Shown: piece after piece, positions 529 through 26,089 of the stretch
How the letters are laid out: each line of letters starts with the position of its first letter
How positions within the stretch are numbered: position 1 is the stretch's first letter
NCBI RefSeq assembly: GCF_018977255.1
Contig: NW_024704750.1
Coordinates: 4,774,001-4,838,000, forward strand
Source: Callorhinchus milii
Taxonomy: Eukaryota
Length of the DNA: 64,000 nucleotides
Reading direction: 5' to 3'
Notes under the pieces: model-generated
Databases searched by the model: none
Told to the model about the DNA's origin: nothing
Seen by the model: the letters and a program-made list of their open reading frames with translations, nothing else
Position numbers and translations under genes: made by a program

Positions 529-3500
529 CTGCTGCATTATAGTGTAGCGTTCACGAAACAGTTCTGCTTTGTCCTTAGCAGTTCCAAAGAGCCTTGGGGC
601 ACTGTGCTCAGTCATCGCAAGACTAAAGAGCATGAGAGAGACAGACATAGATACATATGGTTTTAAACAAGTGAATAACTATCATTCTAACCAACTTTTT
701 AAAAACAGTTAATGAAACAGTTCACATTAAAAAAAAGTTTGAATGGCCCAGGAAGACAAAGGAATTTTATGCCCTTGTTTTGGTAAAAAAAACTACAACT
801 ATCTACTTGTACTTCCAATTTGTTCTTTATTTTATTAAAACAAATTATATTCTTTTTATTTGATCTTCCTGTATTATATATCCCATCTATGGTAGAGAGC
901 AGACAATCTATGTTACATCTCTGCTCTATTACTAGCCATAAGGAGATTACTCAGTCCGCTTTCTGTTCCTCCCTGTGGAAGAATCCACCTATATCTAGAT
1001 GAGGTGTGGAATTTGCTACACCAAGAACCACAGACATAGGCTGACTCCATGGTACCATATATCACAGTGCTAACGGCTATAATATTGTTTGTGCGTCAAC
1101 TGCACAGTTATTTAACTCGGTGGTTCTTGTACCACTTATCTCTAATTTGTCTCTAATCCTTTTCTGGGCATAAATATTAATTTAAGTATTACAGTCCTTA
1201 ACAAAATACAATGCACCTGAGGAGTCTTTGGTGTAACAGATTACTCACAAAAGGAAACCGTGCTTGCACATAAGATTAAAAACATCATTGTTTGTTTCAA
1301 GGCACCACTTAATTACAATTAATTAATTATGTGTAAAGAAGGGTAAACAAATGCAATGCCAACTTGGAAACACTCACTTAATACTGCTATTTAGATCAGT
1401 GAGAAAGATTTAAACTTTTCTTGATATACAAAATATAATTCAGGTGGAAAAACATGTAGTTTTAAGATTTTACAAACTAAATGACTCCATAGATGTTGTA
1501 CAAACTGAAGACGAGGAAAAAATTCTTGTATGAATGAACGAAAAAAGGAAAAAAGTTGCAAACTCACGGTAAAAACTTTTTCCTTTCTGGATTGTAGATA
1601 AACCGAGGGACGTCAAACGCTCCGATTATATTAAAAACGTGTTCCCTGTGAAAGTAAGTGATAATCTTACCAAAACTCATTGCTCTAAAGAATGTCACAC
1701 CTTTGTATTTTGTTTTTTCATGAATAAATATACATTCATGAGCTGAATATTGTCTGCTCCCCAATTCCTGCGGACACTACATTCTGTTATGTTACTTAAT
1801 AGGAATTTAGCATGGACAGTAAGTAGTGTGATAATTTTCAGTATTTGATATATATATAATATAAAATACAGCAGGTAGTAAATATTTTACATCTTCCTTT
1901 ATTGGTAGTCCTTTATACAGCAAATAACTTTGCTGAATAAAGCAGTGTTTTTTTTTAAATCAAGTTTTGAAAATTTCATAATTGTTTTATTCTGAAAACA
2001 TAGTTGTGATGTTTAATGCAATGCATCGTATAAACTTCTATTTGACTTACATAGTTTCATCACACGTCTGACTGCATTCCTGGACTGCTGCCTCCACCAT
2101 CGACTGTTCAATCATGTTGCATTTCACTGAAATGTAGAAACACACAAATTAAGCTTTTTTTTAATTACTTAGCTATAGCCTGGAATAATTGAGACTGGAA
2201 ATGTGTAGGAAAAGCTATCATTCAAATGAACACTTTTAGAATAAGGAATTTATATAATTTATGTACTGCAAATCATAGCACCATGGAAAATCCATAGAAA
2301 TCTACAACACAGAAGAAAGCCATTCGGTCCAACGTGTCTGTGTCAGCTCCCTCATGAGCAATCTTTCAATCCCACTTATCTGTGCTTTTTCCATAAAATT
2401 CCTTGCATTTGATACAGCGTCTTATCACATCATCAAGACATCTCAAAGTGCTCCACGGGAGTGTAGTGAATTGACTGATGTATTTCATAAGTTTTCACTG
2501 CATCAATAAGAACAACTGACCCCGAGATTTTCAAATATGAACATGGAGAATTCCAATTGGCGAGTGCAAGTGTTAAAATTAATCTGAGAATTTTGCTTTA
2601 CTGCATACGTCTTGGAAAATTAATTTCATCAGGAGATGAACCGCAGCTTAATACCGGTTTCAGTTTCAAACAATGGCAGCATCTGAGCATTAGGTTTGCA
2701 AGATGAACAAATCCGAGGCGTGACTGGCGATTACTTACGCGGCTGCTTTTCAACAGCATCGACGATCCGTTCAATGGCATCCTCCAGCTCCAGCTCAGCG
2801 ACCGACTCGAGCACCTCGACGAGATAGACTGTGGCGTTGCTAATGCAGAAATTAAAAGAACGACAATTTTTCTACGCAACTAACTTCGCGATGCACTGCA
2901 GCAGCGTTGCGACTCTCCCCGTGCAACGCCCAGGCCAGGGTCCGTCAGCAACAACAACAACAACAACAAGATTCCATTTATTGAGCGCCTTTCGCGTCGG
3001 GAGGACGTCCCGAGGCGCTGGACAGTTGGGTCAGGACCCGAGCATTGGGGGGAAATGGTCAGGGTGAGGGGAGGGAGCGAGGAGGGGGTAAGAGAGTCGA
3101 GAGGGGGAGCTGAAGGCTGAAGAGAAAAGTTAAGAGCCTCGCGAACAGAGTTAAGAGGAAAAAACGATTTACGGTCACAAGTGTGGAGATGGAGAGAGAT
3201 GAGAGAGGAAGAAAGCCGACCACAGAGGCGGGACAGCTTCCCGCGCAAAATGTAAGCAGCCACATTGTGAAGGGGCCGGTGTTGGTTCCTTCGCGAAGCT
3301 TCCAACACCAACCAACCGGGACATCAGGACCGAGCAGCGCCGCGCCGCGCCGCGCAGGGGCAGTGTTGGCGTTCAGCCCATCTGCCATCCCGACACAACT
3401 CCCCGAGTCCGGTTGCTGACTCGGGCCGAGCCGGGCCGGGCCGGGCAGAGAGGGCGGGGCGGCAGTGTCCCGGCGCGGCGACACTTACGATCGCAGGAGC

Positions 3501-3553
3501 AATCCGTGCATCTTAAAAGCCGCCGAAACCCGGCCCTTGATTCTACCCGCCAT
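529..3553 (-). CDS. POLE2: DNA polymerase epsilon subunit 2, 5' part (coding exons 1-5; gene continues beyond left edge)
   Basis: Exons 3489-3553 ([21 protein letters not shown]), 2739-2839 ([33 protein letters not shown]), 2051-2126 ([24 protein letters not shown]), 1568-1645 ([26 protein letters not shown]), 529-622 ([31 protein letters not shown]). All GT-AG, phases join, and the peptide matches the recalled POLE2 N-terminus. Confidence 0.96.
2947..3140 (-). mobile_element. L2-type LINE 3' end fragment
   Basis: (CAA)n tail plus GATTCCATTTAT..GCGCCTTTC.CGTC.GGAGGACGTCCC, shared with the longer copy at 10290-11252. Confidence 0.8.
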
Positions 3554-3566
3554 CGCCGGGGGGGGG

Positions 3567-3665
3567 TTTGGCGCCAAATGTGCGCCACTTCCGCACACGA
3601 GGGGGGCGGGGCGATGGGCGGGACTAGGGCGGGCGGGGGGGCGGGGCTAGTGTGGGGGCGGGGCG
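3567..3665 (-). promoter_or_regulatory. POLE2 promoter elements: palindromic E2F site plus GC-box cluster in a CpG island
   Basis: TTTGGCGCCAAA at 3567-3578, 13 bp upstream of the ATG, followed by several GGGCGG boxes (3602-3665). CpG-rich from about 2700 to 4100. Fits an S-phase replication gene. Confidence 0.75.
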
Positions 3666-3685
3666 AGGGAGAACGCCACACGTCA

Positions 3686-4230
3686 GACAACAACAACAAC
3701 AACAACAAGAAGATTCCATTTATAAAGCGCCTTTCACGTCAGGAGGACGTCCCAACACCACCACCAACAACAGCAACAGCAGCAGCAGCAGCGACCACAC
3801 CGGCGGTGACGGGCGCCCCCCCCCTCCCCCCGGAGACAAACGATCCGCCCCCCTTCGACGCGACGGCCTCGTCCGGCGGCGGAGACCGCCTCAAGGCGCC
3901 TCGGAGCACGTACACCGTCAAGTCAGAGCGACGGCGTTATTTCGTAGGCGATCGCTGGCGGCCAATCTGCCCACACGCAGCAATGTCTCACAAACCCACC
4001 GCGGGGCGGGTTTGGTTTCCGGGGCATTGGCCGGGCCAGGGGTTGCTCCCTTCTCTTCCTAAGGAGGTGCGGATTCCAACAACAACAACAACAACAAGAT
4101 TCCATTTATAAAGCGCCTTTCACGTCAGGAGGACGTCCCAAGGCATGGTATTAAAAGATAAAAGTAGCCTTTGCTACTGGAAAATCGCCTGCTGCACAGT
4201 TGGGTCAGGACCCGAGCAGGGGGGAAATGT
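3686..4230 (-). mobile_element. Two short L2 3'-tail fragments (3686-3752, 4076-4230) and a (CAA/CAG)n microsatellite inside the POLE2 CpG island
   Basis: Same tail motif as 2947 and 10290. Confidence 0.75.
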
Positions 4231-5286
4231 ACATTTGTATAGCGCCCTTTGCACAGGATAGCATCTCGGAGTGATATTTTAATGGCTGGGGCAGTTGGAT
4301 CTTGCGTGACTTCTGAATCTGAACTCGTGATCGGGGAAATTGATTAATTGGCATTGTTTCTGCTGTGCTGGGCACAAAGAAGTAATCATCTTGTTTTATT
4401 TCCCCTGGGATCTTGTTCTCCATTACAAAGTGGGAATTTGTAAGTATGTACCCAGAAAATATTCAAACAATCGGGGTTTTTTTTGGGGGGGGGGGGGTCA
4501 GTTTTTTTCCCTCAAATTTCTCTGTTCCACTGCTGCCAGTCATTTTTTGGCTCGTCAACAAATGCCAATTATTTGCATGTAAGCATTAACTGCGAATGTT
4601 AGGCTATTCAACAAATGTAGGGCATCATGACCAAACCCAATCTTGTTTTCGCGAGACACACATTATTCTGAGTGTTAGTCAGCGGAGTCACTTCAACGGA
4701 GAAGTGAACAAAATTGAAGGAGGTGGGTAACCTGATAAACAGCATCAAAATATAGATATATTCCTGTATTATTTACAAAAACACAAAAGATGAATATCTG
4801 GAAATCTGCAGACAATGGACTGTGGACACAAGTAATATTTTTAACAATGGAATTCTTTGTCAGAATACTTTCAAATGTCAAAGAATTCAACATAATTGTT
4901 TTAGAAACTATAGCATTAATAGAAATTACATTTAAATAAAAATTATTTACGTATATTTTTTAAAAATATATCAAATTATATTTAACTAAATGGGAAATGG
5001 TTCACTTTCTTTTTTAAAAATAATCTTAGGGTTTTAAATAACTAATTTAAGTACATAGTGTAAACCATCTAAATATAAAGAAAAATCATTTGAAGAGCAA
5101 GATTGAAAGTACACGAGATATGCAATTGACAGTACATATAGCTTGGCCTGTTTCATTTGCCATAATACTTTGGTCTACCCTGTGTGTGTGTATATCAGAT
5201 GTAAAATTGATTAGCGAGGGTTCATCCAGTGCACCATAAACGAGACAGACTAAGAATCACAAAAGAGGGGAAAAACACAGGGAGAA

Positions 5287-5382
5287 ATGGCAGAAGCTGA
5301 TGCGACTTTAGTGACAGAGGAGAGGAGCGGTCGTTGTGCAGTGCTGGATGGAAACCACCTCTATGATTGGGGTGGCTACATA
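5287..5382 (+). CDS. KLHDC1: KLHDC1 alternative/duplicated first coding exon (exon 1a)
   Basis: 96 bp ATG-initiated exon MAEADATLVTEERSGRCAVLDGNHLYDWGGYI followed by a gtaagc donor. Phase 0, compatible with exon 2 at 11566. Clear homology to the KLHDC1 N-terminus (recalled human MADSQLFCVAEERSGHCAVVDGNFLYVWGGYV). Whether it is used is not shown. Confidence 0.7.
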
Positions 5383-5449
5383 GTAAGCTTCAAGCTGCAA
5401 TAACCCAGCCTGGAAACTGATCAAGATAAACCGTCCGACCCCTAACCTT

Positions 5450-5945
5450 CATAGAATTACACAGCACAGAAGGAGGCCATTCGGCCCATCATGCCTCTTT
5501 GAAAGGAGCTACTGAAATCAACCTCACACCCCCACACTCTCCCCATAGCCCTGCAAACTTGTCCACCCCAAATAATTATCTACTTCTCTCTTAAAAGTTG
5601 TTATCGAATCAAATGCCTTTCAAGCAATGCATTCCAGATCCAAATAACTACAGTGTGAAAAAATTTCTCCTCACCTCCCTTCTGTTTCTTTTAACAACTA
5701 TTTTAAATTGGTGTCCTCAAGTTTCCGACCCACATGCCAGTGAGAAATAGTTTCTCCTTGTTCGCCCTAAACAATACCCTCATAATTTTGAAAACTATAT
5801 CAAGTCTCCTCTTAACCTTCTCTGCTCCAAGGAGAATAATCTTTGCTTCTCTAGTCTCCTGATAACTGAAGACCCTCATTCCTGGTACCATCCTGGTAAA
5901 TCTCCTTTGCATCCTCTCCAATGCCTTGACATTTTTCCTAAAGGA
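5450..5945 (-). mobile_element. CR1-type LINE 3' fragment
   Basis: Degenerate RT C-terminal peptide ERMQRRFTRMVPGMR..SYQE..L..FKIM. 3' end CATAGAATTACACAGCACAGAAGGAGGCCATTCGGCCCATC typical of shark CR1. Confidence 0.8.
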
Positions 5946-6694
5946 TGAGTAACCCGAAATAAATTAATTAAATAACCTGGAACCATATGCAAGGAAAAAA
6001 AAACTAAATTCTAACTCCAGGGTTTTGCTTCTTTGTTCACCTTATTTGCTCAGCCCAAATTTTTTTTCAAAGATACAAAGTTAACAGAAGGTTCAAGTGG
6101 AATGAATATGATGTTTAAATAAACCCAGTGACATGGCCACTTACTGCAGGAGCAAAGACTCCATAATTGTATTTGTCTGGGGTCCAGCAATTATTTAAAC
6201 ATTGCTTCGCACCGATTACTTTACTCCATCATATTCATACAATAGGCAGCTTTAAACATTTTCAATTGGAAAGGAAATTATGATTCTATTTTTAGGATAT
6301 TGGAATTGCAGCTGTAAAGAATCTAAGGGAGGGAAGTGAACGAAATAGAAAGATAATAATAGCCAAAGAGGAAAGTTATTGGTCTCTGATTGAAAAAAAG
6401 TAAAGTAGTCCCACAACTGCTTAACAAACTGGCACTGTTGGATATGAAATCATGCTACTAAATCACCCAGTTTGACAAGGAGGACCATAAAATTGATGGA
6501 ATATCATTTAAGAGGTTTCCTGTTTCTTGCTGATGTATACAAAAAAGGAAAGATTTTCAATGCTCTCCCACCATCTGAAGCTGGCGATTTGTGTCTGGTT
6601 TCAAATGCGCCAGCAGACTCCCATTAGCAATTATTTATGTGTGACGCAAATTTAATCATATCCATGCTTGGTGTTCACATGTGCATTTGTCAAC

Positions 6695-7112
6695 AATAAT
6701 AAATAATCCTGGCATTTGATGTAGCACCCGATCACATCGTCGAGACACCTCAAAGCCCTTCACAGGATATACCGTAAAGTGGGGTGACTGCATTTTGTGG
6801 GTAAAATGCAGCGGCCAGTTGAAAACGACAAGCAATGAGCGACAAATTTTATTTGGGGGATTATTGTGCAGGACACCAGGAGGAACTTGCTTCTCTTTTC
6901 AAATAGTGGCACGGACTCTTTAGCATTCACTTGAACAGGCAGAAAGGACCATGATGGTCTAACATCTTATCCGAAGGATGGCACCATCGACAAGGCAGCA
7001 GCCCCTCCAGTACTGCATTGGAAGTGCCTATGTGATTCCACGTCCCAACGTAGGGTTTGAACTCACAACCTTCTGACTCGGAGACGAGAGCAAACACTGC
7101 GCCAGGCTGACA
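6695..7112 (-). mobile_element. Deu-domain SINE (SacSINE1/AmnSINE-like)
   Basis: ATCCGAAGGATGGCACC..GACA..GCAGCA..CCCT.CAGTACTGCA.TGG segment recalled from Deu-SINEs, tRNA-like head near 7060-7112 and the shared LINE-like tail. Confidence 0.65.
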
Positions 7113-7199
7113 CATGTAAATAGAAAACAAACCCGCTGTCGGTCAGGTACATTTTTGGACTCCCAGCAGCTCACTCCGCTCTGGGGGTAATTTTGTGCT

Positions 7200-8400
7200 C
7201 GTGGTTTTATGAGGACGATCCAGTCAACCCACCGCTTGAGCTCGTCAGGTTTCGCTCGCTCCAGGTGTTCCGAAATCCGACGAGACCGCCAACGGAACAA
7301 TTTCTACAGTGCCTGAAATAGTACCGCGGAATTTGATATCTTTTTTTAAAAATGTATTTTAAAATACGTTTGTAGTCCGACAGTTTGCGTCGACTACTGC
7401 GGGTACTAAGGTGGTCAGTGCCTTTGTGAAACCATGTTGGCAAAGATCTTCCAAAGGGGGACGTTTTTGCAGGTTTAAATAAATTTTTAAAAAAATTAAC
7501 AAAAAAATGAAGCCCAAATTAGGAACCCGCCCAAAGTCGCGTCTTTTGCCGCACAGTACCACAAAAACCCGCCCAATTGGGCGCGAGCCCGCCTCCCCCC
7601 CCGCCCAATCTGAAGTGCGCACGCGCAGTCGCGCCTTTGGCCGCCTCGCGACAGCCGCACGTGCGGCGAAAAACTGGGCGGTGCCCGACAGCGCCGGACA
7701 GCGCCGCGCGACGTCTTTGTGAGGAGAGAGAGACCGAGGGGCCGCCACCTGAGCGCTGCGCCCCCGCAGACCGGTTTAACTCGCCTCTTCATCGCCGCAT
7801 TTCAAAACCTCTCCCGGGGGGGGGGGGCTGTGGCAATGGCTGAGACGTCGATAATTCAAGAGAACCAACATTACGCGGTGTTTGACGCCGGTTTTCTGTA
7901 CGTGTGGGGCGGCTACGTGGTAGGTACGGCCATCGCTCGACGATGGAAGCTTCGAGAACGTGGCTCCCTCCAAATCCGGGAAAGCGAATCCGACGGCTCG
8001 ACTCTGTGGGGTGGGTCGAGGGCGCCATCTTTATTTAACTCGGTGCGGGCGGGCGGGCGGGTCGGTGGCGACTCGACGGCTTTAACTCGACACACGTGAT
8101 CGGTAAATCTTCGCGCGTTTTTGTTAAACACATAGGGCGGTGGTGGGGGAGGGCAGGTTTTCCCACTTTAAATCTTTGAGGGCCCTAATCGCCGCCACTC
8201 GCGGGTTCAGCTTCTTCCCCTCAGACCCGTACTGTGTTACGTCGCCCCCATTTCTCCCCCACAAACACACACACACACACACACGCAAACTAAGAAAGGA
8301 AGGAAAACGAGTCAACGTTTCGGGTCCACGACCCTTCGTCAGAACTGATGTTCTTTTGGGGGGAAAAATGAAAACCCCTAAAAGTCCACTCGAGAGTGCA
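7200..8400 (+). promoter_or_regulatory. CpG island / KLHDC1 promoter (exon 1b)
   Basis: CpG-dense. CCAAT boxes near 7574 and 7605, NRF1-like TGCGCACGCGCA at 7616-7627 and CACGTG at 7658, upstream of the ATG at 7836. Confidence 0.65.
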
Positions 8401-11400
8401 AAGATTCAATTGAATGTGTAGATTATCCACAAGTAACAGTGAGACTGGTGGAATTAACCCAATTGCAATGTTTATGTTGGCCATTCCGTTTAACTCTGAA
8501 CAAATCAATACTTTTTTTTTAAAAAAAAGTTGGAAAGGGGAGGGAGCACTTTGCCTGAATTACTTTTTGCCGCTGGATTATTTACTGCTGATAAAATATC
8601 CTTGAGGATATTTGAGGAACGTGGAGATAATAAATACGTATCCTCGCATTTGATACAGCGCCTTTCGCGTCTTCTGGACGTCTCAAAGTGCTTCACAGAA
8701 TATACTGCGCAGTGAATTGACTATATTGTGTGGGTGAAACGCGGCAGCCAATTGAGCAGTGTCCCACAAACAGCTGTGGATTGAGTGAACAATCTTGGAG
8801 TGAATCCTTTTTTTTTTGAAGGATTATTATCCCCGGAAAAGTGATCGGCCAATCGACTAACAACCGCATGCCTACTTACTGACTGCAGTTTTTTTTTGGC
8901 TGCTGTGATTTGTGTTCTTTTTGGGCAGCCGTGGGATAGCATGAAGTCTGCTTTGTGAAGCAGAATTTATACTTTTGACACTCATACTCTTATTGTAATT
9001 GTAGTGATCAGTGCTCTTTCTGAGCAACTTTGCTGTTTGTATTATTCCTGGGGAATCTGGGATTTTTTTGGTTCTTTGTGTTGTCTTGGTGAACTATGGG
9101 TTATGGAAATGTGTCATCTCCTCAGTTAGGCTATTCTGCTGTCTGGGAAGTGGCATTTGAGTGTCCTGGAGAGTCAGGTAGAATGTTTTAGGCTGAACGA
9201 GGAGCTAAATTGGGAAAAATTAACCTGGGGAATTGTTACCTGCCAGGTTGATCCAAATTGTCCCCTCTGATTGATGCAAATACAGCCCATCTAATACTTG
9301 AGCATCTTGCTTCCTTCAATAAACTAGGTGAAAGGACCTAAAACGATTGTACTGCCATCAGTGAATAATGTGTTTTCAAGGGCAGTTGGGGAGAGTACTT
9401 TGAACAGATTTATTTCTCCCTTCCCCCACCCCCAATTTTTCCGTTCCTCTATAAAAAGTTTAACACAAGGTAGTTAAGCTGCTTTGTGATGTCAGTGATG
9501 GTGTAGTTCAGCTCCCCTCTCGACTCTCTTCCCCCTCCTCGCTCCTTCCCTCCCCTCACCCTAACCATTTCCCCCCTCCTCGCTCCCTCCCTTCCCTCCC
9601 CTCACCCTGACCATTTCCCCCCTGCTCGGGTCATGACCCAACTGTGCAGCGCCTTGGGACGTCCTCCTGACGTGAAAGGCGCTTTATAAATGGAATCTTG
9701 TTGTTGTTGTTGTAGTTCTAGGAATTACATCATGAAGTAATGTACGTATGCACATTATTGAATATATTCACAGATAGGGGTCTCACAAATCGAGGGATAT
9801 TTTCATTTCCAACAAGATTGTCTACAGGGAAAACTAGATCTAGTAACTGAACTAATTTGGGAGCCAATCCTGAGAAACAATCCTTACGAACTAAATACTA
9901 TACACCTACTTCAGCCGATAATTTATTTTTGCTGACTTAGCCACACCCAAGTTGCAATGAAGGGATTGATTTGGTTGACAATGCATAACATTTATGAAGT
10001 CCTGTAGCTCAGTGGTGAGAGCACTCGCTTCGCAAGCGAGAGACCTGAGTTCAATTCCAGGCAGAGGGCGAAACCTTGGGCAAGTTTCCTTACTCCACAC
10101 AGAGCCTAATAATAATCCCTCCAAAAAAAAACAATAATAAATTGGTCATTTTCAATCTACGACTGTTTGTGGGACATTGCTGTGCGCAATTGGCTGCCGC
10201 GTTCGCCCACAAATATACAGTCAATTCACTTTACAGTGTGTTCTGTGAAGCGCTTTGGGACGTCCTCCCGACGTGAAAAGCGCTATATCAACAACAACAA
10301 GATTCCATTTATAAAGCGCCTTTCACGTCAGGAGGACGTCCCAAGGCGCTGCACAGTTGGGTCATGACCCGAGCAGGGGGGAAATGGTCAGGGTGAGGGG
10401 AGGGAAGGGAGGGAGCGAGGAGGGGGAAATGGTTAGGGTGAGGGGAGGGAAGGGAGGGAGCGAGGAGGGGGTAGAGAGTCGAGAGGGGAGCTGACGGCAC
10501 GGTCAAAGAGAAAGGTTTTGAGACCGGCCTTGAAGGAGGAAAGGGAGGAAGCGGCGAAGGCACTGGGGATGGAGTTCCAGAGCCTGGGGGCTGAGAGGCT
10601 GAAGGCCCGACCACCGATGGTAGGGCGGTTGGGGCGGGGGATGTGGAGCAGACCAGAGCCAGAGGAACGGAGGGTACGGGCAGGTAGGTAGGGGGATAGT
10701 AGGTTGGAGAGGTAGGAGGGAGCAAGGCCGTGAATGGCCTTGTAGGTGAGGATGAGGATCTTGAAATCAATCCTCTGGGGGTTGGGGAGCCAGTGGAGGC
10801 GAGCGAGGGTGGGAGTGATGTGGTCCCGAAGCCTGGTGCGGGACAGTACACGAGCTGCAGAGTTCTGAATGACCTGCAGTGTGGAGGGAGGTGGCGGGAA
10901 GGCCGGCGAGGAGAGAGTTCCCGTAGTCCAGCCTTGAGGTGACAAAGGCGTGAACCAGGGTTTCAGCAGCGTGAGGGGTGAGGTAATGGCGTAGTCTGGC
11001 GATATTCCGGAGGTGATGGAAGGCGGTGCCAGTTGTGGTGCGGATGTGAGGGAGAAAGGACAGCTCAGGGTCGAACAAAACGCCGAGGTTCCTGACCGGC
11101 TTTGAGAGGTGGAGAGTGCAGCCTTGGATGCTGATGGTGTCAGCGCCTGAGGTGCGGAGGCGCTGACGTGAGCCAATCAGGAGGGCCTCGGTTTTTCGCA
11201 CGTTGAGCTGAAGAAAGTTGTCTCTCGTCCAGGACTCGATGTCAGACAGGCAGGGATTATTATTATTATTTAGTTTGGAGCTGTTGTAGATATTAGTCAG
11301 CCAGTCCTGAGCGAAGTGATGTTTCAAAAGATACTTGACTTGGACCTCAGTCATAATGTCCCCAAATTAGACATATTTTTGGAAAGGAGAAATTGGGACT

Positions 11401-14400
11401 TTTATACACACTTTTTTCCAAGAGAATTCGTTTAGGTTGGAAGTACTTTGTCTCTTCTTCACTTTCCAATCTCTTCTAAAAACTAACATTTTGATTACAT
11501 TTTAATCTTCAATTTTTGGTGAAACTTTAGGAAGATACAAGAAATTAAATGTTTTTCTGTTGCAGATATATGAAAACCATGAAGTCTACTTACCCAATGA
11601 TGAAATTTGGGTTTATGAATTAGAAAATGGCACATGGTAAGATTTTTAAAAAAAAATGTTTTAGTTATGATGTTTTAGTTTAGAACCAGGGTTTCTCAAA
11701 CTTTGTGTGAACTTTCCTAAACCAAGAAAAAAAAGTGCCTCCCCATAGTTCACCAAGACAACACAAAGAACAAAAAAAATCCCAGATTCCCCAAGAATAC
11801 AAGCCGGAAAATTGCTCAGAAAGAGCTCTGATCACTACAATTACAATAAGAGTACGAGTGTCAAAAGTATAAATTCTACTTCACAAAGCAGACTTCATGC
11901 TATCCTATGGCTGTCCAAAAAGATCCCAAATCTCAGCAACCAAAACAAAACTGCAGAAACACTTCAGGAAACCAAACAATTCAGACCATGGCAGTACAAT
12001 ATCCATCAGTCACACCCCATCAGTGGGAAGATAGTGGAATTCAGGATTGCCGTGTAGAAAGATGCATAAGAACATAAGAAATGCTGGACGAAAAAAGACC
12101 AAGGTCTGTCTGGTTCACCTTCCACTTTCCTGGCGATCGCATGCACATATGTCCCAAACCACATATGTACTATAGGTTGAAGGGAGTTTGGCTGTCACGG
12201 GAAGTGCTGTCGGGGGAGCAGCTGCGCCAGGATGTGGGGCCATCCAGCCCTGAGAAACCTGGGACTTTTGGGAGGCACACCAGGGAGGTGCACCCCACAG
12301 TTTGAGAATCTCTGTGCTAGACAAATAATGTTCAATTGTTATTGATTATGATAACAAAATTTACAATAAGTTTAATGTTAGACTTGAATTTTGATTTTTG
12401 AACTACTGTACTTTTAAAGACAGGTAGTTCTCCTAACCTAAGCCATGTAAAACAAAACTTAAATTACCACCTACACTTTTACTTTTATGTAAAAGAACAT
12501 ACTAGCAGATCAGCAGCTCACTGCATCACAAGAGAGATATGAATTAAAAAGACCCTTTGGCCCATTTGATCTCATCCTTTTGAATTTTTGATGTTTCACC
12601 AGAACTTATTAAAATGAAGCAAAGTAGTTTCTTTTAGCCAAAATTAAAAATGTGTTGGTTGATAGTAGCTGCATTACCATCTATATTCATTGTACTTTAA
12701 TTTGCTTTTCAAAATTTAAATTAATTTATTTTAATCTACTTCAGGCAGAAGCACGCAATGAAGGGAGATCTACCACCTCCCTTGTCAAGAAGTTGTGCTG
12801 CTTGTCTGAATGGAATAATGTACATTTTTGGAGGATATGATGGCCTAGAGTATACCAATGAAGTAGGTCATTATCTCAAATACGTTTGCTACATGGTATT
12901 ATGATTTTTATTTAGATAGAACAAGATTGAGAACTTGTACTTGTTTTGCTGAGCATAGTAGGCATTGAAACAAAAAGCGTTTTATTCTTCCCTCCTGAGG
13001 ATGTTGACACTGGCAGCCTTCCCTCCTGAGGATGTTGACTCTGGCACCACATCCAAGTGAGCATTCTCCATGTCCAGACAGTGAATGCTAGCAGACCATT
13101 CAACGTTGGGTGTGATCCCATCTATTATCCATATTTGTAGCTTTCAGGATCACTTGATAGTGGCCGTCAGCAGTAACCCTAGCTGCGGTACTCTGATTTT
13201 TCTTTATTCTTCCCCCTTCCATACCTCTAAAACAAAAGGCATTGAGGCTAACTTCTGCCTTGATTAACAGAACAGGTGAGGTATCAAATTTGGCTTCAAT
13301 TTGCTGTTTACCCAGGCAGCTTGTTAAAAATAGGAACTTAGTGTGGAGAATCCTGAGTTCCATAAACATCCTGAGACTCTTAACTCACAACATCTCTGTG
13401 CTAATGAAATCCTACCTGTCTCCCATTGATGCTGTAGGCATGATGTTAGGAAGAAAATAACTTGTGTTTTGCTTCTGGTGAATTCTCCTATCAAATTACT
13501 GTTTTATATGAGACAGTTGATGTGGTATACAATATTAACCTACTCTATTTATAAAGATTCAGAGTATAAGTTAACATTGAATAGAAATTTGATTTATTGG
13601 AGACCAAGTATACTAATGTTTTTATACATCTGAAACAGATGTATTGTGTTAATCTGCAGGTAAAAGATGCCACGTATATTTGGAAGAAACTCAGGAATTG
13701 CCAAGGAATTTGTCCTACACCAAGACATGAGCTTTCTTGCTGGGTTCATAAAGACAGGTGGGTCCCTGACTTTTAATAAAAGTTGCAATGACGAGATTTC
13801 AGCAGTGAATAGGAATAGAATTTCAGATAAGGATTCTGAAATGCTGTACTCTGTCCAGGGCGTTGGGACGTCCTCCCGACGTGAAAGCCGCTATATAAAT
13901 GTAATCTTGTTGTTGTTGTAATGTATATAATGGAATATTTAAAATCCAATAAGTGCCAAAATATGGTATTCCTGTTGGATGATGAGAAATTAGTTTCAAT
14001 TTTTATCCACTTTAAATTTTCTTTTCTTTACTAGTATTTACACAACAATATTCTTTGCTGACCTAGGTCTGCATGAAAATATATAGATGCAATATTAAAA
14101 AAAATCTGCATCTAACGATCAAGATTTTTAGGAGAAATGCCTGAGGACACGGTTTTGGCATAGTGCCTTCTTAACTTTAAAGGGGATATTACACTCGCTC
14201 TGTCTAATAATGTGTTTTTCCTCATGGAGGAAATATTAAATTCTTCAGAGTCCAATCCTCATTTGGTTTCCAACAACAAAAATTACATTTCTATAGCGAC
14301 TTTCACGTCGGGAAGACATCGCCCAAATTAGACCCTATTGTCACACTATTGCTGACAGCAGCACATTAATGAAATTTGCCCCCCACCCACCATCACCACA

Positions 14401-17400
14401 AAAAAGTTCCCTTCCCCAGATCACGTGCCAACAACAGAAAGTGCCACTATTTAATGCCATTGAAATCAACAATGATTTCTCTTTTCTCCCCCCCCCCCCC
14501 CCCCGCCAAACTCTGCAAAATAACTTCCTGACCACATTCTGTACCATTAATTGTCTGTTAAACACATAAACAGTGCTGACTTGAAAAATATTTTGTGAAC
14601 CTTAAGTTCAGATTTCTATTCCCTTCCAATAAAACTAATATTCTATCTAAAATTGCATTAGAATAAAATATACACGTAAAAGGAAGTCTTCAAAGAAGAC
14701 AAAACTGAGCTTTCCAAAGCAGTAAATTATATTTAAATTAGTAATTACATTTGAAAATCAACTTTGATTTCTGACAGGTTGATTTATTTTGGTGGCTATG
14801 GGTGTAAGAGAATCAGTGAATTGAACGATTCGTTTTATGTGAATGAAGCATCTTGGGTAAGACTCTTAATTTTTATCTTAATTTCTGTCTACATGGTATT
14901 AAATGCAAGAATTATTATTATTTTATTATCAAATAATTATCGAATTCGAATGAATTTTATTCATCCAAAGGGGCAGATCTTGAGAGTGAATTTTGCATGT
15001 TTACTTCTAGTGCTCCTGTGTTAGAGCTGCTTTTCTACACTAATAAAACAACTCTGTCTGTGTGTCAATGTATCTGCCAATCGCACAATAACTGATTGAT
15101 GTAGGGACATGATTTATACCTCATCGGAAAGGTCTTGCACTTAGAAGTGTCATGGGCATATTTTGTTGGGGGGAACTCCTATTGTTGATGAGCTATATTA
15201 AAAATTAAGCCTCAAAATATGAGGTATCCTAAATCATGTCTCTATCTCAGTTGTGACACATCCATTGTGGCATCATGTCTATTGTACTATACAGTATATA
15301 ATAATGGCTTGCAGACAAAAACATTGTGAAACCGAAAAACAATCTATCTTCTACACTAATAAAGACGAAGTGTCTGTCTGTGTGTCAATGTATCTGACAA
15401 TCATACAATAACCGATTGATGTAGAGACATGATTTATACCTCATCGGAAAAGGCTTGCATCTGGCAATGTCATGGGCATATTTTTTTCTGGGGAGGTGGG
15501 GAGGAATCTCCTATCGTTGATATAGCTATATTAAAAATGCTTTAATTAGCCCCAAAATATGAGCTATGCATCATATTCTGCAACTATGTGGCAACAGAGA
15601 AAAGCACACAGTTCAGAGAGATGCATCTATATTCTGCAACAAATGTGTGGCACTCTTCTGTTTGTCATGGGAGCTAGAGTCCTCCCATGTGGGACAGAGA
15701 GAGAGACACTGAGATTGTGAAAGATTGAAAGAGAGGGACTGAGAGAGAATATTTTATAAAGTGTAGTGACTGTTTTGTGGGAGAGAAACTGGGAGAGTGA
15801 GATTGAGTGAGAGACTGGGAGAATGAGATTGAGCGAGTGACTGGGAGTGTGAGATTGAGAGAAAGACTCAGAGATTGAGAGAGAGACAGAGAGTGAGATT
15901 CAGAGAGAGACAGGAGAGAGACTGGGAGAGGGGGAGAGACGGAGAGGGAAAATATATTAAAGGAGTCCTCCCTCTGAGTCCTCCCAAAAGGAGATCTCCT
16001 ACAGGAATCCTTCCAGCTGAGTATAATGTCTAAACGTGTCAATCTACATGTCTGTGTGTCAATCTACATTCCATATTGAATCCGTTGGTTGCAAGTGAAG
16101 CTGCAATGGGTACAGTTTGTAGACAATATTTTTGCAAACAAGTAATATTTAGGAATGATTCATATTTTTAATCTTAAATCTGAGATGGACTTGCGTTAAA
16201 TGTTCCTTTCAGGAAGAAGAGATGTTCTGGGGATGGAATTGTGAGATCCATGTCTTTGATCCCAGTATCCAGATCTGGTACCAGCCCACGACTAAAGTAT
16301 GTTCAAACTCCAGTAATAATAGTTCAAAAAAATCTTCTTTATTTTAGTTGTTTTGTTTTAATCTTACTTAGGCATAAAATTCCACCTAGTTTTAGTCGAT
16401 AACACCATCTTATATACATTTTTAACATCTCTCAGAATTGTGAAAAATGTTTAAATTCAGTATATCAATTTGAAAGCCAGTTTTCCACAGCTTTTTTAGA
16501 AAAACCTATCTTGCAAATTAACACAGAATTTAAGAATTTCTTACAATTCTGTGTGAATTTTAAGACTAAATGGTCTTAATGGCTAAAACTAGGCAGAATT
16601 TCGCTCATATTATCACTTTTTCTAAGCAAGTATAGTTTGTTGAATTCTCCATAATAAAGTTGTAAAGAAAGGTAATAGTACACTCAGTAATCTGCTGTTG
16701 GTTTTGTTGAGCTTTAGGACTGCCTGATTTGGAGACAGCTAATAGTGGTAGTTGTTAAAGGCTCAGCCACCGATGGTGCAGGGGGATGGGGGATGTGCAG
16801 CAGATCTGAGTTAACTGAGCTAAGGGGATGGGCAGAAGAGTGGAGAAGGTCACAGAAATAGGGAGATGGCATTGTGTAAAGGAATTGATAGGTGAGAATG
16901 AAGACTTGGAAGTCGATCTATTGAAAGCCAGGGAGCCAGTGGAGCTGTGGCGAAAAATGATAATGAAGACTCTTATTTAATTGCTGAATTTCCTTATTTA
17001 GGTTTTTCCCTTACTGTTTTGTGCTGTATAAGTGTGATACCAGCTTAACATCAATTGTTTTACAGGGGATGCCTCCTCGGCCTCGAGCAGCCCATGCCTG
17101 CGCTGTTTTGGGAAATAAAGGTTATTTGTTCGGAGGTAGAATACTGGTGAGTCAATGACTCTTTTTCATTAAATAGATTAAATTGATCCATGTTTGAGTT
17201 TAATGCAGCCTTTTGCCTGATTTTCAGGAAACAAGAATTAATGATCTGCACTGCTTGGACTTAGATTCGTGGACTTGGTCTGGGGAGTAAGTATTTTTTT
17301 GTTTACATAGAATGTGGTGGTTGATATTTAACAGCAGTCCTTTTTTGATTATTGGACTTACAGTTCATTTGCAAAAATAATTAAATTTTAATACCAGATT

Positions 17401-20400
17401 AAAACTTCCTTCCCTTTTGATTAGTCCTGTGGGATCTTTCATGTTCATCTGAACAATATGCAAAGGATGGCACCCCCAACAATGCAGAGCTCCAACACAT
17501 TGTAGAAGCCTGAAAAATAGATTAATGTTCATGACTCAAATTGATGCTTGTACGATAAAATCATTATTTTATTTTCTATGATTCAAGTATTTTTATTAAG
17601 TCAATGAAAATAAAAGGGTAGATTGCAGAGAATACACAATAGAGTGGCCTGGCATTGCAGTTTGACTAGAATCCATAGTGTCCTAATAATAATAATCCTT
17701 GCATTTATATAGCGGCAGCCAATTGTGCACACAACAATTTGTATCGTGGAATTGCTAACAGTATATAGACAGCAACTATTTTACAATTTTAATTTAATAT
17801 TATTGATTCTTCCACAGATGTATGATGAGTTGAGGCTTAATATGCAACATTTTGGCTTTGTGTAATGTTAATTTCTCTGTGTGTACCTTTAGGACATTGT
17901 TTTGGGATACTACTTATAAGGTGAAATGGCAGAACAAGCATGGAGTGAATAAGAAAAACGAGATCAGGAGCACAAGAGGGAAGCTCGGCAATAGAGTGTA
18001 GACAGCTTAGAAAAAGTAGCAAGGAAAATTACAAATCGTGGCAATCTGATGAGGCTGACTGAATTCAGAGGGGGGGAAAAAAAAGTGAGAGCCATGTAAA
18101 TCAAAATAAATAGAAGCTTGTGATAGCACAGTGATAGTCAATTGGAGCTTCAGTGAGCTCCATTATGTGTTTGATTCCATGATTAACAACATGATGAGTT
18201 CATCTCCATCCTAACACTTCAGAAAAGTTCTATGCAAGAACTACTCCATCTCCCACATGAAGGGAAAATTTGAAGGTCAATCACTATCCTGATTTAAATT
18301 ATAAACAAGAAATGTTGTGAAGCATTAAGATGAATAAAAAGTATCATTGTTGTCAGCAAGGGAAGTACCTTTTACTTTAGTGGTAAACAGATTACCAGGA
18401 TGAGCCAGCATAATCTTAATATCCCCCCAAATCTATAAGGACTTTTTTTATAGAATATATTGGTTGATATAAACTCAATCTACTTTTGTGTTGTTGTTTG
18501 TTTTCATTAGAGTTGCTGTTGATGGAATACGCCCCCAGGGTCGTTTATGGCACACTTTGACTCCGGTGACTGATGATCAGCTTTTCCTTTTTGGAGGGCT
18601 AAGTGCAGAAAGTCAACTACTTAGTAAGTATTAACACTTATTCCTGCATTTTTCTTCTGCATGACAGGTGACATTAATACTGTGGATAGTTTTTTTGATA
18701 TAAAATGCTGTCATTTCCCTCACTGGGTATGGTGATGTGACCTCAGTTATTAAAATGTGTGAAGGTGAAAGGATCCAGGTCTTATGTAAGTTATTTGACT
18801 TTTTCTGGGAATGTGGAGCTAAAGGATGAGGTTAAAATGAAAAGCTCCACTGAGAGTAATAACTCTAACTAGGCGAAAAGCAAACATAGAAATAGAATGT
18901 CTATCCTAACTATTCCCATCTTCTTCAGCCACCATGTCCATCTCAGATATCCAGCCAGCAGTTTGAAGCGCTTGGAGACTTCTTCCTGATTTGAAAGGCT
19001 CTATACATATTGCATAAATGCTTTTAAAGTTTTATGGTATTGTCCTGTCTGTTCTAGGTGATGCATGGATCTACAGTGTTGGAGCTAATGAATGGAGACA
19101 ATTTGCACAGTGCCTTAAGAACAGACCCAGGTACAAGCAACTTTCCTGTATCTGCAGAGTAATGCTCTGTTTATGTTTAACACAATATTTTGCCAAATAG
19201 GATTTCCCAGATAAAAGCATATTTCATTATTTAGAAAGTGAAAAGGTACAAGAAGACTGGAAGATAACTTGTATTTTGCTACTGGGCCTGTTTTGACTTG
19301 CAGAAAGAGCCATTTTGCCCATTTGTCTGGGATACTTATTTTACTGGCTACTTTGGATGCTGAAAATAATTTAGGGAGAATGAGACTCTGAAAACGTCTG
19401 CAGGTGTGGGGGAATTCAACACATCCTGAGGACCATGTCAGCAATCAAACAATTTGGATCTTAGTGAAGTTCTGCTTTTTATGTTAAAATAGGTAGATAA
19501 GATGGTTGAGGATCACCATACCTCCCTGCTAATTCGGATCAGTAGAGGGGAAAAATATAGATTTCTGACGTCCCTTTTTTTAAGGAGAAAACTGAACACC
19601 TTGTACGTTCCCATTCTGCCTGTACCATTTTAGTTTGGTGATGTGAGGTTAGTTACCAGAAGGAAGAAAAATTGAAGGATATTACCTATGATCGTCCTCA
19701 CATTCCTTTTAGAGTTCATCTATAGACTAACATTGCCTGAAATATATTAAATTTCTAGTGTTCTGTTTTAAAGGCAGCAGATGCAGGTAACATATATTTC
19801 TTCCTTTCATTTTCATACTAGAAAACCATTTTGAGCAGATCTATTGGGTGACTAGAAAAAAAAGTCTTACATGATGTATTACCTCCCAGCAGCTGGGTAA
19901 AAAGCTGGGAATAGGTTGTCAGGTTGGTAGGGGGTTAGAATGTCACAGAGATAGGGAGCAGCAAGGCCATGGAGGGCTTGGAAGGTGAGGACTAGGATCT
20001 TGAACTGTATCCTCTGAGTGATGGGGAGCCAGTGTAGCCAGGCAAGGATGGGGATGATAGGGTCGCGGCTCCTGGTGCGGGAGAGGACACGGGTTGCAGA
20101 GTTCCTGCTGCTGTAGCCTGTAGAGGGAGGAGTGGAGAAGTCGACAAGCAGAGAATTTGCTTAGTTGAGCTTGAATGTGATGAATGCGTGTATGAGGATC
20201 TCGGCGTCCTGTGGTGAGAGACAGTGGCAGAGTTAGGCAATGTTGCGGAGGTGGGGAAAGAAGGAGCAGATCATGGCACGGATGTGGGGGATAAAGGACA
20301 GTTGAGGGTCGAACAGAATTCCAAGGTTCCGTATTGGATCCATGAGATGTAGAGTGCATCCATGAAGGGTGATGCTATCAGCGCTCGAGGTATGGAGCCA

Positions 20401-23400
20401 AGCAGGAGGGCCTTGGTCTTGTTGATATTCAATTGGAGGAAGTTTGCTCTCATCCAGGACTTGATGTCCGACAGGCAGTCTTATGAGGACAGCAGTGTTC
20501 CTGGAGTCGAGGGTGGAGGCGGAGAGATGGAGTTGGGCATCATCCGTATACACATGGAAGTTGACCCCATGTCTACGGACGATATCACCAAGAGGGAGCA
20601 AGTCAATGTTGAAAAGGAAGGGACCAAAGGCAGAGCTCTGAGGGACGCAACATGTGATGGTACGGGGGCTAGGGCAGCAGCCGTTACTGGAGACGATGTG
20701 AGAGGTAGGATTGAACAAGCCAAGGCCAGGTCCTTGAAGGTTGAGCTGCAAAGAGAGGCGGTGGAGGATGATAAATGGTCGACAGTGTCGAAGTGCATCA
20801 GAGAGGTCGAGGAGGACAAGAGAGTCAGATACAGCTTACAGAAATTAAACTGTTGTATGACTTAATGCTGCAGGAATTTTGACTCAGAAGATTGTGAAGG
20901 AAAAACTAAGCTTCAATTTCTGAAGGACAGTTCATTCACAGACTTTTAATTTACTCTGCCCAGTAATATTGGCAAAATGTTTTCTTGGTTTTCTCTTTCA
21001 TTATTAAACCTAACCGCATAATCTGTAAATTTTAATGAATGGAGGCAAAGGTTATTTTGCTTAGTTCAAATTGGCCTTGTAATGGCACACAAGGAAGATG
21101 TATCCCTAAAATTAATTCCTCCGACTAAAGATTTACATTAAATACAAATATTTGAAAATTGCAACAATTCTGTAGCATTTACCAAACTGCATACAGTATT
21201 TATTGCAGGTTCAACTTTTTTGATCTCTGCCACAACAATTTCTATCAATGCTATATGTGGGAGTATTGTTTAAATTTCTAAACATGATTATCACTGTGTA
21301 ATCTATACCCTAACATGTTACTATTGTTTATGCGTAATGCGTAAATTAGTGTTTTTCATCATGGTTTGGGTCATTTCAAATTTCCATCGAGAGGTTTTTT
21401 TATATGAATAAACAATTAAATGAAACGATCTGTGATATAATTTATACTAGGTATAGCAGTGATGTTTTGCACCGTTTTAGATTAGCAGCTACCAAGCGTA
21501 GTAAGGGTCCAAATCCCTGACTGTCCAGCGCCTTGGGATGTCCTCCCGACGTGAAAGGCGCTTATACAAATGTAATTTTGTATTGTATTGTAATAGAGCA
21601 CTGTTACAGTGTGTACAAAAAAAGCGTCAGGTTGCAAGCTAGGATTTCAACAAGTTCGAGTCAGGAAAGTCTACTCCATGTTCCACGGTGAAGCAGACCA
21701 GGCAGAGGTTTACCAACAGCAAGGCATGAGACAAAGGTTTTAATGAAGTGAGGAAAGCAGAGGCAGATGCAGGGCAAGGGAGATGTAGACTGCTTCTCAA
21801 AATGCAGGTAATACTGTGAAGGTAAAGGTAGGGGCTTTATCATAGATCAGTTAAGAGTGATACATGTAATATCAGATATTATTTATGTTGCTTAGATTAC
21901 TTTAATTTGCCAGAATATCTCAAATTAATTGCATATGGTTAATTTAGCTACAAATCTTATCGCAGAAAGAAATCTTCACAGACTAGATTTAGTTTCTAAT
22001 GAGAACCAAGTAATGCGCTAAGCATATTGAAGTTTATTTTCAGGACCCTCTTACTTAAAAGTTCAAGGGACAGTGAAATTTATCAGGTTCAAAAGTTTGT
22101 TCAAACTAATACTAAAATCTGTATTAAACAAAAAAGTGTATAGAATATTTAGAAGTGTTGGGCAATCCAGATATACCTGATAAAGAACAAAATTAAGTAA
22201 TGATTCACTTGTTTATTCTTCACATACTATGTGTAAAATAAATGTTTCAAAGATTAGAATTGCAGGGATGCCAATTCCTTTTAAGGGCTTTTGACAGAAT
22301 CAACGTGACTACTTTCAGACCATAGCTTTCTTTCTCTCTCTTTTTCTCCTCCCATCCCCACTTCCCCCAGGTAGTGTTATTTCCTGCTGTTGATACCAGT
22401 TACTTTGTGCTGCCATTTCCAAGTGACAGAAGTTTTTCATTGATAAGTTAGCCATTTAATATTTTTTTAAAATGTTAGGATTATATTTATTACAGATTCT
22501 GAGTGAGATGTAAGGCCCCTTTACCCAAGGTCTATTTTCTTAATTGCCTTGCTATTGGAAGGTGGCTCCGTAATTTATGATTTTCCACAATCTCTTGAAC
22601 AATGCTGATGAACACAAGAATTAAGCACTTAAGAATGATTGTCCCTATTTAAATGGTTATGTATTAATATACAAAAGCAGCACAAATTAAACAACAAATC
22701 ACTCTCTCGTAATGAGCTGAAGTCTAGACAGCAATAAATGTTAATTAAATAATCCAGTGCATTAATTTATTTTGTACTCCATCTAAAATTGCAATATTGT
22801 CAATATGGTTGGATGCATAGAGAAAACAAATTCCATTTTCAACCATTGCGCTAAAATTTGCATGAAATGGCAAATCAAATTTTACAGGAAATTGAGTGAA
22901 TCACATACTGTGCTGAAATATGAGAAATTGCTTATGAAATTTAAGATGAAAACAGTGTGTTATATTAGTGTTGAAATCCTCTGTAGGTTGTGGCATACAT
23001 CCTGTCTAGGAAAGGAGTTTGAAGTGATGGTGTTCAGTGGAAGCAAGGATGATTTACTTTCCTACGATACTGTAAGTGAATTCAGAATACTTTTTAAAAG
23101 GAGATGTGATGTTTGGACCTATTTTTGAAATTAGTAATTTTGAAATATTATAGTAAAGGTATAATTAAATGTTTGCGTTCTGCTCCAAGAGAAGCAAGCA
23201 CGCTTAGCACGTGGAGTCCTGTAGCTCAGTGGTTAGAGCACTCGCTTTACAAGCGAGACACCTGGGTTCAATTCCAGGCAGGGCGAAACCTTGGGCAAAT
23301 TTCCTTATTCCACACGCCTAATAATAATCCCTCCAAAATAAAACAATAATGAATTGGTCATTTTCAATCCACAACTATTTATGGGACACTGCTGTGCGCA

Positions 23401-24689: not shown

Positions 24690-26089
24690 TCAAGAATAGT
24701 TCATTCATTATCAGACTTAAATACTTTTTATATGTCTCACAAAATATTGTTATGATTGGCAAATGCTCTCGTAGTGATTTGCCCACGTGTGCCCAATGCA
24801 GTTCTAAACGTTTTTTTAAAAATTAACAAAGGTTTACTGTTTTATTGTTACTTTTGTGCCATTGAGTGCTTGGACATATTTTCCCTTGTGAGTATGTCTT
24901 CCCATATTTTTGAGAAATATATACAGTTTTATATATATATATTTAAAATATATTACCACTTCGTCAAAAACATTGAAAGATTTGTAACTGATCAATTTAT
25001 TTCCGAAAATCCTGATTGTTGCCAAAAGTCACATGATATTTAAAAAAATTGAGCAGCACCCTTTTCAGTAGATATCGTATAGTGTGCTTTACCCAAAACA
25101 CAAAATGCATCCCCTATTTCCTACAACATAATGCATTCCACAGCCTGTAGTTTCTTGATACCATTTTCACACTAAACTCAACATGTGGATTTTTGTGGCT
25201 TGCAGATTGGATACAAACAAACTAAAATAGTGCATGAGACTTGTAGTGAGAAGCCAAGGCCAATGAAGCACTATGTCATCTAGTGTGATAGCGTTCACAA
25301 CTGTGAAAAGGTGAAGCACAAAAAAACATTGGACCAGGTTGTGAAACTGAAAACACCATAGGAAGTGGAAAAATCATGGAATTGTGTGATCAACATGGTT
25401 TTGGTATTCTAGGAAAGTCTAGCTGACGAGTGTGGGCTATTAGAGAGAATCTTCTTGACAAAATAAAAGTTAAGTGAAACTAATTAAAAGCTGAGGACTG
25501 GTAGTAAACAACCACTTGCAAGTAAATCTGAAAAATCGTGCAACAGGTAGAGTTGTCTTAATAATTAGGGGCAATGGGAAAGTTTGGTCCAGGTGATGCT
25601 TCTGGTTTGGCAGAATTAACCCTTTTACAAGTACTTATTGAGTATATTTTGATGTTTTGGTTTTTAATGCGTTAGATTTCCCAATTAAAATTTTTCATGG
25701 ATTCTGAATATATTCTAGAAGTGCTTACCTTTCAAGTTACTGTTTGTTTAACATTTGAACATGTACCTATCACAAAAATATTTTGTATGGACACTTTCTT
25801 CACTTGCTTTTATAACCTTGAATGTAATAAAAGGCCATATATAATTCTTTCACATCCGTGTTTTGTCCCTTGCATAAATGATGGTTTCTATAAATAAACA
25901 GGTTTACACATGGTGTAGCCACACTGTAAAAAAAATTGATAATTATGGATGGCCCTATCTTGTGTATAATGTGATGGTGGTATAAATCCTTAATCTGCTG
26001 TAATTCAAGTTTTATAAAATGTTTAAAAATAAATAATTATACCAATATTTACTGGTCTGTTTATTATTTCACATGTGATTAAAGTGCCA

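Follow-up and report, generated by a model that had tools for sequence, protein, structure and literature searches.

Why does KLHDC1 of the elephant shark, Callorhinchus milii, possess two first coding exons, and what do they contribute to the protein? The gene lies in a window of 64,000 nucleotides (RefSeq assembly GCF_018977255.1, contig NW_024704750.1, positions 4,774,001 to 4,838,000 of the forward strand; positions given below are those of the window), in the order POLE2 (minus strand), KLHDC1 and, downstream, KLHDC2. Two reports describe KLHDC1 as a CUL5 receptor (CRL5-KLHDC1) for Gly-Gly C-degrons (PMC7090344, PMC12035522). The dual first exon of KLHDC1 is real and ancient, fits the 5′ class of tandem-exon substitutions and is unreported in the literature searched. 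The explanation that we consider probable is that exon 1 was duplicated before chimaeras separated from sharks and rays and that the copies serve as alternative first exons, likely with separate promoters and with a predicted difference at the floor of the substrate pocket. In C. milii itself, exon 1b would likely be the main form, exon 1a likely relaxed and the pocket likely rewired away from Gly-Gly.

Exon 1a (5287–5382, + strand; 96 nucleotides, 32 codons) encodes a canonical-type start of blade 1 and has the donor ATA/GTAAGC. Exon 1b (7836–7919, + strand; 84 nucleotides, 28 codons) encodes a chondrichthyan variant of the same segment and has the donor GTG/GTAGGT. Both begin with ATG, end in phase 0 at a GT and are in frame with exon 2 (11566–11636, + strand; 71 nucleotides), whose acceptor at 11566, after TTGCAG, is common to the two; sequence, translations and donors agree with the original prediction on these points. 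A hidden Markov model (HMM) built on the first-exon cores of other species (22 in all), scored over the six-frame window, gave 41.9 bits for exon 1b, 37.1 for exon 1a and 35.4 for KLHDC2 exon 1. Because these scores far exceed the next place (8.0 bits), the resemblance between 1a and 1b is beyond chance, and the two are tandem homologous coding exons of equal phase. The HMM scan revealed no further exon-1 copy in the window beyond these three. A genome search with exon 1a returned itself and KLHDC2 exon 1 only; it missed 1b and hence is not exhaustive. Exon 1b had been described as losing ERSG: the motif is indeed absent, but it is replaced in register (I-Q-E-N-Q for E-E-R-S-G, then H), and the four-residue shortening lies 5′ of it.

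The duplication of exon 1 is almost certainly old. The DNA flanking 1a and 1b is no more similar than shuffles (score 108 versus 104.7 ± 8.7) and the third codon positions of the two cores agree in only 8 of 23 cases, both of which argue for an old event. In a first-exon tree of 22 rows and 32 columns, the five 1b rows, from C. milii and from sharks and rays, form a clade with 100/100 support, a stem of 1.62 and short tips, and a clade of C. milii 1a plus 1b is rejected by the approximately unbiased (AU) test (p = 0.0003). The core residues of C. milii 1a match elasmobranch 1a at 17–18 of 23 positions and elasmobranch 1b at 7–8; those of C. milii 1b match elasmobranch 1b at 17–18 and elasmobranch 1a at 11–12. 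Since C. milii 1b groups with shark and ray 1b and the AU test rejects the alternative grouping, the duplication predates the chimaera–shark split, some 400 million years ago. A recent local duplication was considered and is ruled out by the flanks, the third codon positions and the AU test.

The chondrichthyan protein clusters gave 38 rows from species other than the elephant shark, with 15 of 63 members listed for the largest cluster. Among the rows listed, 14 (11 species) have a 1a-type start, four a 1b-type start (Rhincodon, Narcine, Pristiophorus and one Logan protein) and 20 start otherwise, including two unrelated 49-residue records. Narcine (XP_069772485.1, XP_069772486.1) and Pristiophorus each have annotated proteins of both types, and the Logan protein, of 354 residues from a single 1,746-base contig, joins 1b to the downstream exons. 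Each type is thus annotated in C. milii, Narcine and Pristiophorus and no listed row holds both, these being predictions apart from the one Logan-contig protein. The tandem duplication with mutually exclusive N-termini that had been proposed therefore stands: each exon is joined to exon 2 in annotated proteins, and sharks and rays have the same state. Alternative N-termini are very probably used in chondrichthyans. KLHDC1 forms of 327 residues that start at the exon-3 Met and have no blade 1 are also common in elasmobranch annotation (at least 10 records), often with several accessions; the annotation suggests that the 5′ end of KLHDC1 is varied across elasmobranchs.

Among the bony-vertebrate rows listed there is no 1b-type start, and a search of short proteins gave no candidate relative of 1b. 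The 1b profile gave 114 matches to representative proteins, none covering the full 32-position profile; these were taken as generic kelch repeats and not inspected singly. A metagenome match to the profile, at one locus with a stop within the match, was rejected as unrelated. Coelacanth KLHDC1 resembles the chondrichthyan case: its exon 2 is preceded by one kelch-like first segment in XP_014343296.1 / XP_014343297.1 and by another, mutually exclusive with it, in XP_005995037.1 / XP_005995038.1. The coelacanth variant differs in retaining the Arg, in matching 1b at only 7–9 of 23 positions and in its long branch; it occurs in two older predictions, and no row that has a current NCBI source contains it. 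A common origin with 1b is compatible with the AU test (p = 0.196) but not demonstrated by it, and if the variant is the same copy, the two-exon state may go back to the jawed-vertebrate ancestor.

The canonical first-exon set comprised 134 rows, redundant isoforms among them; C. milii 1a, all 1b-type rows and the coelacanth variant were excluded. R, S, G, H and the V preceding W are each retained in 133 of the 134, and the ten elasmobranch 1a cores keep all of the canonical residues (EERSGH). All five 1b rows carry I/V-Q-E-N-H/Q in place of E-E-R-S-G, and 19 of their 32 columns are invariant, including the derived Q-E-N. In these rows exon 1b shows a burst of change and then constraint. C. 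milii 1a has two private changes, H16R (codon 5332–5334) and V27D (codon 5365–5367, in a predicted core strand), which fall at columns conserved in 133 of 134 rows and are carried by no other row examined; its terminal branch is 0.66, compared with a median of 0.087. On account of these changes and this branch, the elephant-shark 1a is more probably relaxed or silent than fully constrained. The complementary degeneration of the original prediction does not hold, because elasmobranch 1a has lost nothing and the 1b differences are derived states held since the holocephalan–elasmobranch split; the pattern is asymmetric, and the wear of 1a is specific to C. milii among the rows examined. The change of F to H in 1a, also read as decay, is not, because that column is variable (C in 31, F in 30, L in 30 and Y in 20 of the 134 rows) and Chiloscyllium has H as well.

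Exon 1b lies in its own CpG island (CpG observed/expected ratio 1.14–1.20) and exon 1a in CpG-poor DNA (0.39–0.51), as first described. The candidate promoter region of 1b (7500–7835, + strand; motif matches only) has GC boxes at 7527, 7569, 7601 and 7676, CCAAT boxes at 7573 and 7605, an NRF1-like site at 7616, an E-box at 7658 and an E2F-like site at 7545, all scored with consensus patterns. The POLE2 ATG (3553, − strand) is 1.73 kb from the ATG of exon 1a, with an E2F-like site at 3567, in keeping with the distance of about 1.7 kb and the E2F-containing island noted before. As to separate promoters, a CpG island and motifs are seen for exon 1b only, and assembled contigs cannot show start sites. 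Both first exons are already in public annotation. Five of the nine C. milii KLHDC1 records start with 1b (XP_007886547.1 / V9KXP0 and isoforms X1, X4 and X5), two with 1a (XP_007886551.1, an older RefSeq prediction / A0A4W3K6E8 / A0A4W3JP35; a current NCBI source is listed for neither) and two at the exon-3 Met. Because of the CpG island with its housekeeping-type motifs and the five records against two, 1b is likely the main form in C. milii. We infer promoter use and relative expression from such features and take the splicing of each exon to exon 2 from the annotation.

Contigs from sequencing runs, none of which is on record as RNA, were searched for junctions. Over 2000–21900 (four runs, swamped by repeats) there was no KLHDC1 junction among the 15 of 535 joints listed, and pieces of two POLE2 exons were seen in a single contig. 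In a search over 4260–5430, none of the four runs gave a contig over exon 1a (5287–5382), and one contig of run X1 covers 5036–5267; because contigs drop rare forms, the missing 1a contig is no evidence either way.

We propose that each transcript would begin at one of the two exons, with its donor spliced to 11566, giving one blade-1 start per protein. With E-N-H/Q substituting for R-S-G in the top-face motif, 1b would have a bulkier and more polar pocket floor that has lost a positive charge; the fold, the BC-box and cullin recruitment would be common to both isoforms. E9, N10, Q11 and H12 of 1b align with R32, S33, G34 and H35 of human KLHDC2. By aligned ranges, with an ungapped register assumed from the range lengths, N10 corresponds to Ser93 of KLHDC10 and Q11 to Asn16 of KLHDC3. 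According to PMC11568203, both residues contact the substrate tail: Ser93 is part of the carboxylate anchor of KLHDC10, and Asn16 hydrogen bonds to the degron backbone at the pocket floor. Exon 1b is thus predicted to change the pocket floor, and we see an even chance that the 1a and 1b isoforms differ in degron preference.

Modelling of both isoforms, which had been recommended at the outset, predicts that both fold as KLHDC2-like propellers. The 1b model has a mean predicted local distance difference test (pLDDT) score of 80.7 and aligns with KLHDC2 with Z 39.5 and a root-mean-square deviation of 2.8 over 315 residues; the corresponding values for 1a are 84.0, 45.0, 2.5 and 356. The match to Pfam PF24681 (195–196 bits), together with these model matches, identifies a six-bladed kelch propeller. 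The alignment extends through the C-terminal region of KLHDC2 to residue 398 and a helix is predicted at 338–348, which places a BC-box region there by a BC-box pattern.

The exons shared by the two isoforms have also changed in C. milii. Exon 3 (12745–12862, + strand) has the private substitutions M65L, G67R (codon 12788–12790) and G87E, in the numbering of the 1b isoform. Exon 4 (13639–13757, + strand) has D121H and K122E (13726–13731), equivalent to D146 and K147 of human KLHDC2, the latter presumably a degron contact. The exon at approximately 18511–18623 (+ strand) has S244L; its codon, TTA at 18545–18547, corresponds to S269 of the KLHDC2 R-S-R anchor and is found in the window and, without differences, in a run contig (18522–18674, X6). 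A further private change, G311S, lies at 23036–23038. The body comparison used the 95 columns with conservation of 95% or more across 43 other rows (44 of 47 rows were used, three with other C-termini being dropped). C. milii has private changes in 10 of the 95, the next highest row has 7 and four elasmobranch rows have none. The R-x-x-H-type motifs of blades 2–6 have ten middle positions, of which four are changed in C. milii (G67R, D121H, K122E and S244L) and none in the 43 other rows; compared with 6 of the 85 other conserved columns, this gives p = 0.01 in a post hoc Fisher test. L244 aligns with S269 of KLHDC2 and the equivalents of R236 and R241 are kept (R210 and R215), such that the anchor reads R-L-R in C. 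milii, and the elasmobranch rows retain the Ser. R236, S269 and R241 are the three canonical contacts of KLHDC2 according to PMC11470957. C. milii KLHDC1 is an ortholog, but with the anchor Ser lost we do not class it as a canonical di-Gly reader. KLHDC2 of the same window keeps the matching pocket motifs; with the private changes clustering at the pocket motif and S244L removing the anchor Ser, this makes a rewired pocket likely. G67R and K122E could represent a charge swap between neighbouring blades.

Several points weigh against an ancient pair of alternative first exons with 1b as the main form and a rewired pocket in C. milii. The splicing of 1a and 1b to exon 2 in C. milii is taken from gene predictions, and the exon-1 tree rests on 32 columns only. 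Exon 1a has kept an intact ATG in its Kozak context, the length, the reading frame and a GT donor as well as the 17–18 of 23 core residues that equal elasmobranch 1a, which fits ongoing use. The blade-1 pocket contacts are transferred from KLHDC3 and KLHDC10, and blade 1 of KLHDC2 is not its carboxylate anchor. In the models, pLDDT is below 50 at residues 1–7 and 1–10, and the underlying alignments are dominated by canonical rows. Because the 1b model aligns to KLHDC2 only from the R32 equivalent, 4–5 residues later than the 1a model, the closing strand of the shorter C. milii 1b may be weaker and its propeller less well closed. With four 1b-type starts against 14 of 1a type among the 38 rows listed, 1b may be a minor form in elasmobranchs. 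Finally, all 16 relative-rate comparisons, which are not independent, find the C. milii body faster (14 of them at p < 0.05); general decay explains this as well as rewiring does and therefore stays a live rival.

On that rival account, Gly-Gly degrons are served by the neighbouring KLHDC2, which allows the elephant-shark KLHDC1 to decay overall; 1a is then a relic with little or no expression, and the pocket changes represent loss. The faster body, the lost anchor Ser, H16R and V27D in 1a together with its weak −1 donor base, and the intact KLHDC2 motifs all suit it, as do four of the nine records, in which other C-terminal exons stand instead of blade 6 and the BC-box, and a fifth that ends inside the BC-box. 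We regard it as unlikely nevertheless, given that every coding exon of the 392-residue form is open with normal splice ends, 85 of the 95 conserved columns are kept with the changes clustered at the pocket motif, the R236 and R241 equivalents persist and 17–18 of 23 positions in C. milii 1b remain identical to shark 1b. Another rival is that 1b is kept chiefly for its promoter, or as a decoy: the CpG island would give broad expression to a form able to bind EloB/C and cullin but only weakly substrate. The CpG island at 1b alone, the reversal of charge from R to E in a motif conserved in 133 of 134 rows and the ten elasmobranch records of the 327-residue form among those listed (with a start at the exon-3 Met, these show that annotated 5′ ends can do without blade 1) are in its favour; 19 of 32 invariant columns including Q-E-N exceed the constraint needed for a promoter-only role, and we consider it quite improbable.

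The version of the original prediction, in which degeneration is complementary, the elephant shark uses both exons and a bidirectional POLE2 island drives 1a, is the least probable of all. That 1a is intact and annotated in the older RefSeq set and UniProt agrees with it, and the POLE2 island lies 1.2–1.7 kb upstream of 1a, with the run X1 contig at 5036–5267 just upstream. Contigs of similar depth, of unknown strand, occur in introns as well. The first coding exon of KLHDC2 also lies in CpG-poor DNA, some 1.5 kb downstream of an island, but a pyrimidine-rich acceptor immediately precedes its ATG; 1a has none nearer than 5198. The asymmetric pattern set out above also stands against it, and mutually exclusive exons cannot complement each other in a single chain. 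Our preferred explanation, the ancient alternative first exons with a likely rewired pocket in C. milii, has a bolder form in which promoter choice would switch degron preference across chondrichthyans and the C. milii 1b blade with G67R, D121H, K122E and S244L would make a reader of new specificity that no longer recognises Gly-Gly; this we offer tentatively, as doubtful.

A 40-codon query from KLHDC1 exon 3 is 100% identical to two protein clusters, both named Callorhinchus milii KLHDC1, and the protein is 59–62% identical to macaque and horse rows and 77–81% to full-length elasmobranch 1a rows. The last coding exon, with the BC-box/cullin-box region, is at 24531–24689 (+ strand; start approximate). 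Alternative terminal exons end isoforms X1/X3, X5 and X4 at 20434–20862, 21595–21639 and 25204–25227, respectively, the first two regions having high repeat depth; isoforms X1, X3 and X5 are without blade 6 and the BC-box. POLE2 is borne out by a Dpoe2NT domain and a PDB match; its coding exon 1 (3489–3553, − strand) lies in a CpG island at about 3250–4050 with GC boxes and the E2F-like site. Copies of the end of a common repeat lie at 3691–3755, 4077–4141 and 10280–10344, in the POLE2 island and between POLE2 and exon 1a. The first coding exon of the paralog KLHDC2 (28610–28798, + strand) is present in one copy with a canonical motif, preceded by a long acidic run of about ten Glu (28640–28680). 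At 26700–28610, the acceptor directly 5′ of the KLHDC2 ATG and a candidate donor near 26827, in the upstream CpG island, suggest a non-coding first exon there.

KLHDC1 substrates are little known, and the locus supplies natural variants for a direct test of the pocket: a pair of shark isoforms identical beyond the first 32 residues and, from the elephant shark, an ortholog without the anchor Ser. The elephant shark often serves as an ancestral reference. Here caution is needed, since its KLHDC1 is in a derived state, and given the likely reliance on the variant exon and the altered pocket residues, its targets may differ. The pocket determinants of degron choice in KLHDCX receptors are an active question (PMC11568203).

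No published report of a dual KLHDC1 first exon was found in the literature searched, whose coverage stopped short of subscription papers and bioRxiv supplements. The closest known system is the 5′ (alternative-promoter) class of substitutions derived from tandem exon duplication, for which PMC8373072 gives 236 human events, including the clustered protocadherins and UGT families; KLHDC1 does not occur in the text of that paper, nor KLHDC, KLHL or kelch in the one supplement searched. KLHDC1 resembles this class in having homologous tandem exons that are used singly, give homologous N-termini and are old and conserved, and its changes fall in loops near the ligand site, as in FGFR2 IIIb/IIIc. 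It differs in that the case is found in cartilaginous fishes and involves two copies, and in that the exchanged segment is part of a single kelch blade in an E3 receptor. First coding exons present in duplicate are a rare class, which a kelch E3 receptor now joins. KLHDCX receptors have an R/F-S-R anchor according to PMC11568203. The C. milii protein is like KLHDC1 and the other KLHDCX receptors in its sequence and the POLE2–KLHDC1–KLHDC2 order, which make it the ortholog, and in its predicted six-bladed propeller with C-terminal helices; it is set apart from them by two blade-1 exons, the R-L-R anchor and G67R, D121H and K122E at top-face motif positions.

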